A DNA stretch of 10,411 bases from Promethearchaeota archaeon (GTDB taxonomy: Archaea > Asgardarchaeota > Lokiarchaeia > Sigyniarchaeales > SOKP01). The position numbers and the translations under genes were made by a program. Position 1 is the stretch's first letter; every line of letters begins with the position of its first letter. Shown piece after piece: positions 2,062 through 8,250 of this stretch. The stretch lies in assembly GCA_016840165.1 (NCBI GenBank), contig JAEOSU010000098.1, positions 1 through 10,411 on the forward strand, written 5' to 3'. Below the pieces are notes generated by a model. That model ran no database searches. It was given only the letters and a program-made list of their open reading frames with translations, and was not told where the DNA came from.

Positions 2062-2472
2062 ATATTTCTGTAGAAAAGTTGTTAAAGGTGTTGTTCAAGC
2101 TAAATCCTCGCGTAGAATGGCACATCTAAGAGTTGTTGCCCCATAGGTTGTGTTTAAATAATCTTCAAGGTTTAGGTAGTAGGATAACAATTCTATTGCC
2201 AATACTGTACTATTAAGTGGCATAATCCTAAAGAAATATTTGTATCTATTGTGCCAGACACGAACATTATCGGTAAAAACTCCAGTGGATACTCCAGTAC
2301 TTATAAGAGGTATTTGGGCATCCATTATAATTTCTTGGTAAGCTAGTAAAGCTTCAGCGCGAAAGCCTCCAGTGACAAAATGAAGGTTATGAATGTTAAT
2401 CATTCTATTAGCAGCTTCGACCCCTTTAGATACAATAAGAATGGGATCTGATTCTTCAGTATCTTCAGATAC
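2062..2472 (-). pseudogene. Internal fragment of a paralog of the adjacent ABC-type substrate-binding protein
   Basis: Translation VSEDTEESDPILIVSKGVEAANRMINIHNLHFVTGGF...IMDAQIP...RYKYFFRIMPLN...CAILREDLA*TTPLTTFLQKY aligns by eye with VAENTNEVYGTVTKGIEAAENIINNHHPHFITGGY...VMDNKIP...RYKYFFRVMPIN...TAIIRDENFAFDGIANAIKSF of the 2544-4736 protein. Similarity starts upstream of the ATG at 2403 and appears to continue past TGA 2095-2097. No signal peptide or C-terminal half. Confidence 0.8.
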
Positions 2473-2543: not shown

Positions 2544-4736
2544 TCACTTTTTAAGTTTATGTTCATTTTTTCTCTTTTCAAGTTTATGCTCATTTTTTCT
2601 CTTTTTAAGTTTACTCTTAAGTTTAGGATATTTTTTAACTAAAACAATAGATGCTACGCCGACAACAGAACTAATCGATACTATAAATATAACAGTCATG
2701 TCAAAAGGTAATTGAACAACTATACACACATTGTTAGATAAGGTATATCCCATTTCATTATATGCTGCCACCGCAAAATAATATTTTCCATTGGTTAATC
2801 CAGTAAGAGAAAATGGCGACTGTGCAGTTTGATTAGCAAATAATGTAAGACTATCATTTATAGTTGTAATTTTACTAATATGCCTATATACAGAATAATT
2901 ATTAGCTCTCAAAGAATCAGTCCAAATTAGATCAAAATTACCATCAGTATCTGTTGGTTTAACAGCATTATCAGTTAAAAGAAAAGGCCCCGGTCCTGGG
3001 ATATTTACGTGAAAATCATTCGAAGACATTGTTTCACCGGTTTCATTATATGCGACGACCCGAAAATAATAATCTCCTTTTTTCAAAGACATTTGAAACG
3101 GGGGTGATGCAGTTTGATAGGCAAGTAAGTCAAATTTCTTACTTATATAGGTAAAGGGATTATCAGACATGTATATAGAATAATTATCTGCGCCCTCAGA
3201 GTCTGTCCAAGTTAGATTAAATTTACCATCATAATCAGGAGTCCCAGCAGTACTACTCATTGTGAAGTTTCTTGGTGGTTGGGGTGGATTAGTAAGAAGA
3301 CCATTAAGCCCCCAATACGGAAGTCTTAACGAGCCTGTTGCGATTGAATCGGGATAACCCGCAGGGGCGACGGGTAAAAATGTTTTATGTGGAACAACTT
3401 CCTTAGTTCCATCGATATATTTAAATTGACAGAATAAGCTATACCCAAAAGGCCAACCATATTTCAAATCATGAGAGGGTGTAAAAGCGCCATAACCACC
3501 AGCCCCAGCATAAGGATTTGTACTATTGATTTTTTCCAAAGCTGATACTGTTACATCAGGATCAAATGTTTGGGTCTTATTAACCGTTTGTACTAATAAT
3601 TTAACGGCATCATAAGATCCTGCACCCGTATATAATGGTTCAATATCGTATTCATTGACATAACGAGTAAAGAAGGGAATTGTCAATGGAGTTTTTGATG
3701 TATTATAGATACCTTGTAATACAATCTCAAACTGACACGCTCCTTCAACATAATCCCAATCTGTATTTAATTGTCCAAAATGACTGTAACTGACAATTAA
3801 GCACTGAGGTTGCAATTGTTTATATGTTTGAGCCATTAATTTTCCGAAATGAGGAGAATCTCCAAACATCGAACAGACTACTTGAACTCCCGTAGATTCA
3901 ATTTGATTCCAATAATTGATGAAATCTGTTGCTGTAGCATCAAACGGAACTATAGTGTCATTTAAAACTGATATACCAAATGTAGGAAGAAAACTTTTGA
4001 TTGCATTAGCAATCCCATCAAAAGCGAAATTTTCATCGCGGATTATGGCGGTCTTGTTTACTATTCCAGCATCTATACTGTTTAGATAATAACCAAGGTA
4101 AATAAGGTAACTTACTAAATCAGTTACTAAAGAGCCGAAATTTATGGGCATGACTCTAAAAAAATACTTATATCGTTCATAATCATCTAGTACATTTTGA
4201 CAAAGTTCCATTCCGGCTGCTGCAGTTCCAAGAAATGGAATTTTATTATCCATCACTACGTCTAAATACTGATAGAGAAAATCTGAATATCCTCCAGTGA
4301 TGAAATGAGGGTGGTGATTATTAATTATATTTTCAGCAGCTTCAATTCCTTTAGTTACCGTTCCATACACTTCGTTGGTATTTTCTGCAACAAGCCCTAC
4401 ATAATAATTATTTCCATTTATTAAGATACCCCCTTCCTCATTAACTTCTCTTGCTGCGAGTAATGCTCCCTTCCAGGCATGGTCTCCTGTAAAATGATTC
4501 ATGTCATCTAATAACCCAATTTTCACTATCCGGTCTACGGGTACGGATTCTGAAATACCAGGAACAGTGTATGACCCTACAATGATATCAGATAAAAAAG
4601 GTTCACTATTGCCCATAAATTTCTTATTATAATCGTTAGAATAACCAATATTTCCTTGTAAAAAGGAAGTAGATAATAAAATCGCAAGAAAAGATAAAAT
4701 TAACCATTTTTTTTTAATTATCATCGCATATTCCAT
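2544..4736 (-). CDS. Branched-chain amino-acid-type (LivJ/PBP type 1) substrate-binding protein with two FN3-like repeats and a C-terminal TM anchor
   Basis: N-terminal signal (KKKWLILSFLAILLSTSFL). PBP1 motifs VKIGLL, GALLAAREVNEEGGI, YKYFFRVMP and SYDAVKLL. Two ~95-aa repeats, then TM VIFIVSISSVVGVASIVLV and a lysine-rich tail. Many NxS/T sequons. Confidence 0.85.
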   Translation of the reverse strand: MEYAMIIKKKWLILSFLAILLSTSFLQGNIGYSNDYNKKFMGNSEPFLSDIIVGSYTVPGISESVPVDRIVKIGLLDDMNHFTGDHAWKGALLAAREVNEEGGILINGNNYYVGLVAENTNEVYGTVTKGIEAAENIINNHHPHFITGGYSDFLYQYLDVVMDNKIPFLGTAAAGMELCQNVLDDYERYKYFFRVMPINFGSLVTDLVSYLIYLGYYLNSIDAGIVNKTAIIRDENFAFDGIANAIKSFLPTFGISVLNDTIVPFDATATDFINYWNQIESTGVQVVCSMFGDSPHFGKLMAQTYKQLQPQCLIVSYSHFGQLNTDWDYVEGACQFEIVLQGIYNTSKTPLTIPFFTRYVNEYDIEPLYTGAGSYDAVKLLVQTVNKTQTFDPDVTVSALEKINSTNPYAGAGGYGAFTPSHDLKYGWPFGYSLFCQFKYIDGTKEVVPHKTFLPVAPAGYPDSIATGSLRLPYWGLNGLLTNPPQPPRNFTMSSTAGTPDYDGKFNLTWTDSEGADNYSIYMSDNPFTYISKKFDLLAYQTASPPFQMSLKKGDYYFRVVAYNETGETMSSNDFHVNIPGPGPFLLTDNAVKPTDTDGNFDLIWTDSLRANNYSVYRHISKITTINDSLTLFANQTAQSPFSLTGLTNGKYYFAVAAYNEMGYTLSNNVCIVVQLPFDMTVIFIVSISSVVGVASIVLVKKYPKLKSKLKKRKNEHKLEKRKNEHKLKK
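2553..2606. repeat. 27-bp tandem duplication (2 copies) encoding (K/E)KRKNEHKL twice
   Basis: aagtttatgttcattttttctcttttc followed by aagtttatgctcattttttctcttttt, with 2 mismatches. Confidence 0.9.
2715..3287 (-). repeat. Two tandem fibronectin type III-like domains (about 3000-3287 and 2715-2999)
   Basis: DGKFNLTWTDSEGADNYSIY...YYFRVVAYNETG..MSSN versus DGNFDLIWTDSLRANNYSVY...YYFAVAAYNEMG..LSN. Both show the FN3-type Trp and YxFxVxAxN pattern. Confidence 0.8.
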
Positions 4737-4904: not shown

Positions 4905-6437
4905 TTAGAGTTCAATTTTATTATGGCATGCCCAGCATGTTTCGCCTTTTTTCTTCAAAACAGTAGCACATTTCATGCAATAATAAGTCTCACATTCAGG
5001 ACATATATATACAGCACCTACGATTTTACCTCTATGAACGACACAAAAATGTTTCTCTTTTTCTACGCTGACCTCTGCTTCAGTTCTTTGTAATTCTCTT
5101 GTCTCTTGAGCAATTTTCGGAAAAAATTTTCTTTTAAAAAACAATATCCCAAAGGAAATTATTAGGATGAGAAAAGCTATTAATGCAATGACGATGGTCT
5201 CAAAAGGAAATCTATCAGGAGGATCTAATGTGTCAGGAATCCCTACATTATCCTTAAAATAATTTCCATTACAATTTAATTCATAACATAAATTATAGGT
5301 AAGATTATTTCCAATGATATTATTATGATTAGATTCATTAAGAAATAAGCCAATAGTGTTATTAAAAATGTTATTATCTGATATATCTGTGTTATTAGTA
5401 TTTTCCAAATAGATTCCGATTTCATTATTATTTACATTATTATTAGCGATATTATTATTTACAGAGTCTAATAAAACGATTCCAGTATTAATATTGTAAG
5501 TCGCATTATTTCCAAAGATTACATTATCCATTCCACCCTCTAAATGAATTCCGTATTCATTAGAATTAATTTCATTCATTGAGGTTGTAATACTCTCACT
5601 ATTATCTATTTCTATCCCCGAGTAATCGTTATTATATATTTCATTATTACTAATAACATTATGATGGCAATCAACGTCATATATTCCAGAATTATTATTG
5701 CTATAAATTTTATTATCTAAAATGTTGTTTCCACGGCTCACGTATAGATGTATACCATTATTATAATTATTATTTACTATATTATGGGAAATATTATTAC
5801 CTGGTGGATCATTATTAGCTAAAAAAATACCATCATTATTATGGCTAATATTATTTAAGGTAATTATATTACTCGCGCTTAATGACGTCCTTAACCCATA
5901 TTGGTCATTGTTATTAACAATGTTTCCAGAAATGCTGTTATCATTACTCCATTTTAAAGATATCCCGTTGGCATTATTGTATGAGCAGTTGTTATCAAAT
6001 ACTTTTCCATTGTTAACAAACATTAAGTTGATTCCTCCATCTTCATCCGAAGAAGATCCAGAACGATATAATGTACAATTTCTAATTATAAAATATTTAT
6101 TGGATCTTCTAATCTCGATACAACTCCCCGAACCTTGGCCATCAATCGTAATATTTTCAATGATAAAAGGATTAATCTGAGACCCATTACCTCTACACCA
6201 ATCGTTATCAGCGGCGGTTTTACTCCAATTATAATTTGGGTCAGAATCATCTATATAAATTGGAGATCCCGTAAGATCCCAATAATTTGCAGAATTTGGG
6301 TTCTTTTCTATTTGATTCTCTGGTTTGAAAAACATTTCTACACTAGTTGAGCGAGAGTATGAATTAACTGAATTTATTAAAAGTGAAACTTGAATTAAAG
6401 TAGTAATTATAATAGCAATTCTTTTAGTTGATTTCAT
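4905..6437 (-). CDS. Single-pass surface protein: NosD/CASH right-handed parallel beta-helix, TM helix and cytoplasmic 8-ligand zinc finger
   Basis: Signal-like N-terminus. About 22-aa Asn-rich PbH1 repeats (GIxLxxSxxNxIxxNxIxNN). TM IVIALIAFLILIISFGILFF (about 5136-5195) followed by KRK. C-terminal CVVH-x10-CPEC-x4-CMKC-x10-CWAC. Confidence 0.88.
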   Translation of the reverse strand: MKSTKRIAIIITTLIQVSLLINSVNSYSRSTSVEMFFKPENQIEKNPNSANYWDLTGSPIYIDDSDPNYNWSKTAADNDWCRGNGSQINPFIIENITIDGQGSGSCIEIRRSNKYFIIRNCTLYRSGSSSDEDGGINLMFVNNGKVFDNNCSYNNANGISLKWSNDNSISGNIVNNNDQYGLRTSLSASNIITLNNISHNNDGIFLANNDPPGNNISHNIVNNNYNNGIHLYVSRGNNILDNKIYSNNNSGIYDVDCHHNVISNNEIYNNDYSGIEIDNSESITTSMNEINSNEYGIHLEGGMDNVIFGNNATYNINTGIVLLDSVNNNIANNNVNNNEIGIYLENTNNTDISDNNIFNNTIGLFLNESNHNNIIGNNLTYNLCYELNCNGNYFKDNVGIPDTLDPPDRFPFETIVIALIAFLILIISFGILFFKRKFFPKIAQETRELQRTEAEVSVEKEKHFCVVHRGKIVGAVYICPECETYYCMKCATVLKKKGETCWACHNKIEL

Positions 6438-6608: not shown

Positions 6609-8066
6609 TTACTTTAATTCAGGATGCTTTTCTAATTCCTGTCTCATTTTTTCGAGTTTTTCACCATGCAAATCATAAACTTTGAAGAAGAGAATTGATC
6701 CAATAAGAGCTATTGAAGGAAAGAGAAACATCAAAGCTTTTATACCAATTTCTCTTAAAGCTGGATCAGCAACAACAGGTACATATTTACTCCATCCAGT
6801 TCCTGAAAATATGATATAAATAGTTGTAATTCCAAGTATCATTGAAAAACGATGAATAAAAGCATTTACACCATAATAACTAGCGGCTCTTTTCACACCA
6901 AACTTAAGTGCATCTTGATCAATTACATCACCATGAATTATATCTATAAAAAATAACGCAGCTGATAATCCAAATCCTATTGTTATAAAGACAATAAATG
7001 ATAATGTTCTACTAATTTCATTATTTGATAAAAGAATCAAAGGAAATAAGGTGATTATCCATATTCCTAAGCCAAGCATTAAACCTTTACGAGTGCCATA
7101 TTTTTTCCTAATCCTTGCTTGAAGAGGCATAAAGAATGCAGCAGATAAGAGTGCTAACATCAATGTAATTCCAATTAACATCGATCCTTCAGTTCTTCCA
7201 AGGACATAGACAGCATAGAGAGGAAATATTGTTAATAACACATTAAAACAATACCAAACAAGCATATTTCCAAGCGTGAATTTTATAAAGGTTCGATTTG
7301 AAAATGTTATTTTCAATGATTTGAAAAATCCCGGTCTCTTTTCAAAATCACTTGTTTGCTCTTCTTTTTCCTTTACTCCAAAGAAAATGAATAATATTGC
7401 CATGACCAATATTATTACAGCTAGAACTATACCTGAAATAATATATTTAGTGTTAATACTAGCAACTTCTGCAGCATATTCTACTGGATAAATAATTGGA
7501 TCAATTGTTGGAATTAAAGAAGGATAAACAATGAAAGTTGGAATTAATGAAGCAAGGATTACTGCAATCATAGTAAAGGCCTTTATAAATACATTTACAT
7601 CTCCTCTTTGTTTCTCTGTTGGAAACATTTCGGGGAATACAGCATTAGTATTTACTGAAAACATTGTATAGAAGAATTCAAAGGTAAAAATTATGAAAAT
7701 AAAATACCAAAACTTAAAATTGGCAGGTACTGTAAAAAGGAAAATCATTATCAACGCTAAAGGAACAAAGGATATAATTAAATACAATTTTCTTTTTCCT
7801 AATTTCCCTTTCTGTTTAGTTTTCTCACTTAATGCCCCCAGTAAAGGGTCATTAAACATGTTCCAAATACCCCACAAAACGAATCCAATCCACATTTCAA
7901 GCATTGTAAGACCTACTACTGCAAAATAAAAAGTAAAAACATAAATTGTAAACGCTTGATATGTTATTTGATCTTTGGTGACTTTTTGATTCACTCAAAT
8001 TTGATCTGGAAAAGCGTTTGTCCCAAATAGTATTTTTTCTTTTAAAGATACTTTTCTTTCACTCAT
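6609..8066 (-). CDS. MFS transporter, glycoside-pentoside-hexuronide (MelB/MFS_2) type, interrupted by a 33-nt insert; join(8001..8066, 6609..7967) gives 474 aa
   Basis: ATG 8066 is preceded by AGGGA and is in frame with the 7994 ORF. Translation is MSERKVSLKEKILFGTNAFPDQI*VNQKVTKDQITYQAF. The SLKEKILFG start is typical of GPH transporters. Motifs WNMFNDPLLGALSE..GKRK and DVID are present, with about 12 hydrophobic segments. Confidence 0.88.
7966..8007. repeat. 9-bp direct repeat (atttgatct at 7966-7974 and 7999-8007) flanking a 24-bp imperfect palindrome
   Basis: Read directly from sequence. The spacer is ttggtgactttttgattcactcaa. Confidence 0.92.
7968..8000 (-). other. Candidate 33-nt bulge-helix-bulge (BHB) intron in the MFS mRNA
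   Basis: mRNA reads CCA-GAUC-AA^A-UUUG-A-GUGA-AUCAAAAAG-UCAC-CAAA-GAUC-AA^A-UAACA. GAUC/GAUC forms a 4-bp central helix with a 3-nt AAA bulge 3' of it on each strand, plus an 8-bp intron stem with one bulged A. It contains in-frame UGA 7995-7997. Excision gives CCA GAU CAA AUA ACA (PDQIT). Confidence 0.7.
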
Positions 8067-8250
8067 ATGATATCCCTAATTTATGATTAAATTTGTATTA
8101 AATTATAATTAAATGTATTTAGATTTTGATCTTTTTAAAACTATATCAAAAGAAATAGAAAAAAATCTATCTCAAAAAAATTCATTAAAATAGAATCATA
8201 TTCTAATTTAACATTAAATTACTATTAATAATCAAGAAATTTGATATAAT

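Follow-up and report, generated by a model that had tools for sequence, protein, structure and literature searches.

A probable 33-nucleotide mini-intron, with a bulge-helix-bulge splice motif built from a direct repeat, in a transporter gene of an Asgard archaeon

The stretch of DNA analysed here (the window) comprises 10,411 nucleotides (nt) and is the entire contig JAEOSU010000098.1 (C90) of a Promethearchaeota archaeon whose genome has 3.6 Mb and 31.6% G+C. Its minus strand encodes a GPH/MFS_2 sugar transporter, and near the 5' end of this gene, at codons 21-36, lies an insert framed by a direct repeat. The reading frame opens with an ATG at 8066, meets an in-frame TGA at 7997-7995 and then a GTG at 7994, and has its stop codon at 6609. 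The Pfam family MFS_2 matches the part after the TGA (E 3e-44, from profile position 11), and the insert falls in transmembrane helix 1 of the transporter. The annotated sources of the closest protein homologs are Promethearchaeia, Lokiarchaeota and Hermodarchaeota. We are fairly confident that the 42-nt stretch formed by the two repeat copies and the sequence between them is the splice signal of a 33-nt archaeal mini-intron of the bulge-helix-bulge (BHB) type in the transporter mRNA. Below, W denotes the copy in the source genome, and the 42-mer is numbered A1 to U42 in the minus-strand reading. The features of the locus are as follows.

8001-8066, minus strand: exon 1, ATG to CAA, 22 codons, MSERKVSLKEKILFGTNAFPDQ (from translation); intact in all insert-bearing relatives
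7968-8000, minus strand: putative BHB-type mini-intron of 33 nt in phase 0, with each bulge cut after its second nucleotide (from orthologs, relatives and structure)
6609-7967, minus strand: exon 2, ITYQAFT... to the stop codon (from the Pfam MFS_2 match and purifying selection among insert-bearers)
7995-7997, minus strand: in-frame TGA, which ends the unspliced frame after 23 codons (from translation)
7999-8007, minus strand: direct repeat copy 1, AGATCAAAT, 7 exon bases and the first 2 intron bases (from sequence)
7966-7974, minus strand: direct repeat copy 2, AGATCAAAT, the last 7 intron bases and the first 2 bases of exon 2 (from sequence)
7975-7998, minus strand: 24-nt core hairpin with a 9-nt loop, one bulged A and an inner helix h' of 8 bp if U9-A34 is included (from folding)
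8003-8006, minus strand: 5' strand of the central helix H, GAUC, pairing with 7970-7973 (from folding)
7970-7973, minus strand: 3' strand of the central helix, H', GAUC (from folding); GGUC, GAUU and GGUU in relatives keep the 4 pairs via G-U
8000-8002, minus strand: 5' splice-site bulge, AAA (from folding)
7967-7969, minus strand: 3' splice-site bulge, AAA, within a larger internal loop in the minimum-free-energy fold (from folding)
8012-8019, minus strand: 5' strand of the distal exon-exon helix, AAACGCUU, pairing with 7950-7957 (from folding)
7950-7957, minus strand: 3' strand of the distal exon-exon helix, AAGCGUUU (from folding)

The initial annotation of this DNA had described a perfect 9-bp duplication around a 24-nt core with imperfect inverted ends, and both parts of this description are correct. 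AGATCAAAT occupies 8007-7999 and 7974-7966 of the minus strand; the repeat is exactly 9 nt long, and the adjoining bases differ on both sides. The ends of the core, TTGAGTGA and TCACCAA, form a 7-bp helix that contains one bulged A and encloses a 9-nt loop. The 42-mer folds with -7.7 kcal/mol (z = -3.5; 1 of 200 shuffles as good), and the same fold is the minimum-free-energy structure in a 76-nt context. Repeat copy 2 has decayed in relatives to AGGTCAATT, AGATTAAAT and similar forms, which are compatible with the pairing in every case.

In the folded RNA the core of the BHB motif is two-fold symmetric, with a 4-bp central helix GAUC/GAUC, two 3-nt AAA bulges on opposite strands and A-U closing pairs, and the inner helix is formed by U9UUG(A)GUGA and UCACCAAA. 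The proposal that the duplicated unit itself builds a symmetric BHB therefore holds for this core (A1-U42, G2AUC5/G35AUC38, bulges A6-8 and A39-41, U9-A34). The outer exon-exon helix adjoining it is no more than this single A-U pair (A1-U42), followed by a 4x8 loop and then by an invariant 8-bp exon-exon helix. With an outer helix of one pair, the motif is a relaxed (HBh'-like) and not a strict hBHBh' motif. Each bulge sits 3' of its central-helix strand, which is the arrangement that the geometry of tRNA introns at position 37/38 demands according to the standard tRNA numbering; a register with the bulges 5' of the central helix was also considered and did not fit. Both RNAfold and RNAalifold predict the central helix together with the 5' bulge, the hairpin and the distal 8-bp helix (AAACGCUU with AAGCGUUU). 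The central helix and the 5' bulge are present in the minimum-free-energy fold, and the 3' AAA becomes a clean bulge only when A1-U42 is paired.

The same 33 nt interrupt the same codon in seven other species-representative genomes (L003, L004, L006, L007, L008, L011, L032) and in the metagenome contig L048, the only additional copy that a pattern scan of metagenomes for any insert at this site gave. Additionally, 11 of the 13 best protein matches are called from an M or V just behind the stop and thus also carry the insert, and P0001, P0003, P0007, P0009, P0012 and P0013 are further insert-bearing homologs at the protein level. All 21 pairs of the BHB, the hairpin and the distal helix are kept in all nine copies. 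Four pairs vary (A1>G, C31>U, A36>G, C38>U), and every change leads to G-U. The distal helix is fully paired (8/8) and invariant in the nine insert-bearers, compared with a median of 6/8 in intronless orthologs. A shuffle control for pair conservation was uninformative, and the conservation seen in the aligned copies is consistent with the structure, not proof of it.

Deletion of 33 nt (one repeat copy plus the core) gives ...NAFPDQ ITYQAFT..., and about 33 uninterrupted orthologs from species-representative genomes read CCN GAY CAR NTN ACN TAY CAR at this site. Removal at the bulges yields PDQ-(I/L)TYQ in all nine copies, colinear with these orthologs. Exon 1 agrees in 20 of 22 positions with the N-terminus of P0015, an ortholog that lacks the interruption, and P0015 aligns to the solved MFSD2A structure with no gap through the junction. 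The initial annotation had named ancestral coding sequence as the finding that would speak against an insertion; the orthologs without the insert indicate that it is not ancestral coding sequence.

Both exons are under purifying selection among the insert-bearers. The proportions of synonymous (pS) and non-synonymous (pN) differences are 0.11 and 0.014 in exon 1 (pN/pS 0.13) and 0.38 and 0.058 in exon 2 (pN/pS 0.15), and the roughly 450 codons of exon 2 contain no stop or frameshift. A second in-frame stop has been gained in four of the nine inserts, as GAT TAA in L004, L011 and L048 and as AAT TAA in L032, and such extra stops occur only inside the insert, where the remaining changes are almost all non-synonymous. 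Despite these non-synonymous and nonsense changes, divergence of the insert (0.084 per site) lies far below the synonymous rate, which points to a constraint on the nucleic acid or RNA and not on the protein. The loop is the most variable part, with a mean pairwise difference of 0.148 vs 0.06 for the rest of the intron.

The same changes help to place the 5' junction. Repeat copy 2 reads GGU in L003, L007, L008 and L048 and ...UAA in L004, L011 and L048. Were the sequence up to C5 taken from this copy, Gly or a stop would replace an Asp that is invariant among orthologs; the 5' exon therefore reaches at least C5, and the junction lies within C5-A-A-A-U9, that is, in the 5' bulge. BHB motifs are usually cut after the second nucleotide of the bulge. 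From this we infer the exact cut position, which would join CAA to AUA and define a phase-0 intron at 8000-7968 of the window.

In the transcript, the two copies of A-GAUC-AAA-U would pair with each other, the palindrome GAUC forming the 4-bp central helix and each AAA a 3-nt bulge, with A1-U42 and U9-A34 closing the sides and the 24-nt core providing the inner helix. A splicing endonuclease of the heterotetramer type, made of two EndA paralogs, would cut both bulges, and RtcB would join CAA to AUA to give ...FPDQ-ITYQ... and a 33-nt intron, which is probably circular. Cleavage and ligation are thus predicted steps. The source genome encodes two EndA paralogs (PF01974, 102 and 72 bits) and RtcB (PF01139, 556 bits). 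Asgard EndA belongs to the (alpha-beta)2 kind with an L1 loop, which is associated with broad substrate specificity, and this type of enzyme can cut a relaxed HBh'-like motif (PMC5829648). The suggestion of the initial annotation that a tiny insertion is removed at the RNA level best explains why removal of 33 nt restores the ortholog sequence and why stops are gained only in the insert.

Several observations weigh against splicing. The outer helix at the 3' bulge is one A-U pair, and RNAfold shows a 5x12 internal loop around the 3' site. The fold is less exceptional in the 76-nt context (z = -1.86, with 9 of 200 shuffles as good) than for the 42-mer. None of the pairs shows a double compensatory change in the nine copies, which come from close and not independent relatives. 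Lastly, the length of 33 nt is a multiple of three, which introns need not have.

Explanations at the level of translation or of mobile DNA were weighed as well. Translational bypass elements such as T4 gene 60 and the mitochondrial byps are in-frame inserts that contain a stop and a hairpin and have matching ends. A programmed bypass at the transporter, with ribosome take-off at AUU before the UGA and hairpin and landing 33 nt downstream, would account for a stop directly after a potential take-off codon, for the hairpin behind it and for the sequence repeated at both ends. Unlike in T4 gene 60 and byps, however, take-off and landing codons mismatch in eight of nine transporter copies: the landing triplet matches AUU only in L004 and is AUA in four copies and UUA in four, and no stop follows CAA, the alternative take-off codon. 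We regard bypass as very unlikely. A broken gene, either a pseudogene or one re-started at the GTG/ATG just after the TGA (MNYKVTKGQL...), fits the public gene calls of 11 of the 13 closest homologs, which begin there. Nevertheless, a start at this point would be shifted into transmembrane helix 1 by the downstream stops in four of nine copies, and the ortholog-invariant Asp would be lost or replaced by Gly; purifying selection still acts on exon 1, which has a promoter-like block upstream of it; and strong purifying selection over about 450 codons in eight lineages is not what a pseudogene would show. Reading of the TGA as an amino acid, or read-through, was excluded by the TAA stops added in four of nine copies. 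Selection on the exons and the gain of stops only in the insert thus argue against a pseudogene, read-through and a GTG start to the point of ruling them out, and the broken or re-started gene as a whole is improbable, if a little less so than bypass. A further proposal of the initial annotation was a minimal mobile element or the collapsed scar of an insertion sequence (IS), and the form of the locus, a perfect 9-nt direct repeat around 7-bp imperfect terminal inverted repeats, is that of an excision scar of an IS or a miniature inverted-repeat transposable element (MITE), or of a minimal non-autonomous element with a 9-bp target-site duplication; the BHB explains this form equally well. In the source genome, neither the core nor the 33-mer recurs with 4-6 mismatches allowed, and no similarity of the 33-nt sequence to tRNA introns or to other sequence of the genome was found. 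Among 154 genomes of the order the core is present in eight, belonging to two genera, once per genome and always in the transporter gene (two matches in G049 are overlapping contig ends); core matches with 2 mismatches are as frequent as those of a reversed control pattern. The genome shows no enrichment of the end motifs and contains no IS- or MITE-like element that has such termini and a 7-9-bp duplication, and no gene in the window encodes a transposase. The mobile-element explanation is thereby largely refuted, and its remaining probability is as slight as that of bypass.

A mini-intron in the transporter mRNA, as preferred here, is compatible with several histories of the repeat. It is possible, at somewhat less than even chances, that the repeat is a scar of the intron's birth: a 24-nt hairpin-forming DNA would have been inserted at a staggered break in the target AGATCAAAT, and fill-in would have duplicated 9 bp. 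A target of the form N-palindrome-NNN-N' would have given a cleavable BHB at once, so that the insertion could be tolerated right away. The splice sites coincide exactly with the perfect 9-nt repeat, which W and L032 have retained without change; the other variants are 1-2 steps away, and by parsimony the perfect form is most likely ancestral. In the intronless orthologs L042, L001, L002 and L021, AGATCAAAT is present once at the site. In the same genome, a junction repeat of at least 9 nt occurs in only 12 (about 0.1%) of 11,524 BHB-like candidates joining open reading frames (ORFs), a set that is nearly all noise; such a repeat is unusual for a single site, but it was chosen post hoc from a very large scan. 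Furthermore, the palindrome alone accounts for four of the nine matches, A-rich bulges are common, no donor or sister copy was found in the 154 genomes, and no enzyme making 9-bp staggered cuts is implicated. Structural constraint plus chance may also have produced a perfect repeat. In its stricter form, this origin would be a one-step birth, in which insertion of the hairpin duplicated an N-(4-bp palindrome)-NNN-N' target and thereby created a two-fold symmetric BHB, excisable by a broad-specificity EndA from the first transcript on; we hold this for doubtful, slightly more so than the scar as such. A possible variant is that an intron circle was reverse-spliced into a target identical to its junction and paired with it; this requires a donor, which was not found. 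The link that the initial annotation drew between transposition-like insertion and intron gain has the repeat as its only support and is unproven. Neither tandem duplication of the exon nor template switching is supported, as the core aligned with 150-400 nt of flanking DNA, both strands included, no better than expected from shuffles (p = 0.16-0.41); the 8-mer TGAGTGAA, common to the core and the gene's own start, was likewise at chance level (p 0.16-0.41).

Other interrupted genes of the same genome bear on the generality of such an origin. An insert of 30 nt in the EF-2 gene (G000:C1:7920-7949, plus strand; H = UCAG/CUGA) and one of 31 nt in the mevalonate kinase gene (G000:C87:6243-6273, plus strand; H = CGUA/UAUG) have a BHB-like register and the same architecture as the transporter intron, including the 1-bp outer helix; their central helices are non-palindromic, and their junction repeats measure 0-1 nt. 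The RNase HII gene (G000:C100, about 6690-6720, plus strand) carries an insert of 30-31 nt that failed the BHB scan and has only a weak register placed by hand, with a junction repeat of about 1 nt. All three inserts bring stop codons or a frameshift, and none has a repeat like that of the transporter. The tRNA introns predicted by ARAGORN in this genome all have junction repeats of 0-5 nt. As the other introns thus have junction repeats of 0-5 nt, duplication is not a general route to introns here and is at most one among several.

Although the genome is rated 99.7% complete, ARAGORN found only 24 tRNA genes in it, of which 13 contain introns; a low count with many introns fits the heavily interrupted tRNA genes of Asgard archaea. 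A genome-wide search for mRNA mini-introns by BHB motif and ORF joining gave no excess over the decoy (29,915 real vs 29,004 decoy hits), and the BHB motif is therefore too weak a signal without homology. A filter for junction repeats left 72 hits and a few ORF-joining candidates, and those inspected on C27, C9, C48 and C64 were false or unconvincing. On C9, an AOR-like gene (G000:C9:107522-107546, minus strand) has a 25-nt BHB-like insert candidate flanked by TTGTAAA, and on C27 a GH57-like gene (G000:C27:29202-29242, minus strand) has its ETYIPML motif in a frame other than that of the upstream ORF. Both sites may be further interruptions, with candidate boundaries that are probably wrong.

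The distribution of the transporter intron is patchy. In a tree of exon 2 the insert-bearers do not form one clade; they fall within a well-supported group of 17 sequences, in which nine intronless genes are nested among or beside them, and at least three changes are needed. L032 has an exon 1 closest to those of insert-bearers (5-6 differences in 66 nt vs 12-14 to L002 and L005) and an exon 2 closest to the intronless L002 and L005, a mosaic with Fisher p of 0.004-0.02. In this genome (G049; L032 / L053 / L065) the gene with the insert lies on two contigs, which share 144 nt at their ends, the intron among them. The mosaic is suggestive of recombination with a breakpoint at the intron, although the same pattern could arise from extra constraint on exon 1. 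If the mosaic is real, it suggests, together with the patchy distribution, that presence and absence of the intron spread by homologous recombination. The 9-bp repeat would also permit precise deletion by slippage.

Upstream of the gene, 45-80 nt before the ATG, lies the conserved promoter-like block TTTTAAAAAGATCAAAATCTAAATACATTT (about 8111-8145 of the window, minus strand). The rest of the intergenic DNA in which it sits differs by 30-48% among relatives. The block contains a third AGATCAAA 8-mer, probably by coincidence. The interval 4905-6437 (minus strand) encodes a beta-helix (NosD-like) protein with a C-terminal transmembrane segment and a Cys-rich, zinc-ribbon-like tail, as judged from a Pfam search. 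A fragment of about 120 aa at 2095-2472 (minus strand) is paralogous to residues 116-235 of the adjacent 730-aa periplasmic-binding/FN3 protein (2544-4736; 38-39% identity, E 1e-21); no further pieces lie downstream of it, and it is probably the remnant of a truncated gene. An Rfam search of the window gave no family match.

Our literature search found endonuclease-type introns in archaeal coding sequences for cbf5 only, and for Asgard archaea it found tRNA introns only. The BHB intron in the pre-mRNA of cbf5 (pseudouridine synthase) of Crenarchaeota (Watanabe 2002; Yoshinari 2006; Yokobori 2009, PMC2738675) resembles the transporter intron in being a short BHB-type intron of an archaeal protein-coding gene in hosts with hetero-oligomeric EndA. 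Some cbf5 introns have 33, 36 or 39 bp and keep the frame, and their distribution is patchy, with lineage-specific loss. Unlike cbf5, the case presented here concerns an Asgard (Promethearchaeia) host and transmembrane helix 1 of a membrane transporter, with splicing that we infer, and its splice motif consists of the two copies of a perfect 9-nt direct repeat, with a palindrome as the central helix; the words 'repeat' and 'duplication' are absent from PMC2738675. Relaxed HBh'/hBH tRNA introns of Asgard and TACK archaea are substrates of the (alpha-beta)2 EndA that has the L1 loop (PMC5829648; bioRxiv 10.64898/2026.10.13.758758). The transporter intron shares with them the presumed enzymes, the size class, the weak outer helix and a lineage with heavily interrupted tRNA genes, and it differs in that the host RNA is an mRNA and the exon half of the motif is coding and not a tRNA stem.

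Gain of BHB introns by insertion of pre-existing intron sequence appears to have been proposed for the transposing tRNA introns of Thermoproteales (Fujishima 2010); whereas those seem to form families with many related copies, the transporter intron has no relative elsewhere in the 154 genomes. Short direct repeats flanking new spliceosomal introns have apparently been read as scars of double-strand-break repair (PMC3020277). The likeness lies in a short direct repeat at both intron borders taken as the trace of an insertion; what sets the transporter case apart is the splicing machinery and the fact that the repeat itself is the splice signal. That direct repeats occur at the borders of introns has also been claimed in general terms (Rogers and Bendich 2025, PMC11782384), in a survey with four archaeal introns that counted repeats lying anywhere within 40 bp of the borders.

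The transporter gene thus adds another well-supported instance of an mRNA mini-intron, in a gene whose public calls begin inside the intron. As one of few cases in which the halves of the splice motif are the same nine bases, it offers a testable model for the harmless birth and precise loss of an intron. A one-step birth, if true, would constitute a general, enzyme-independent route by which protein genes of archaea gain introns of the tRNA type, with a repeat that later permits their precise loss. Asgard archaea are the closest prokaryotic relatives of eukaryotes, and how their genes become interrupted is of wide interest.

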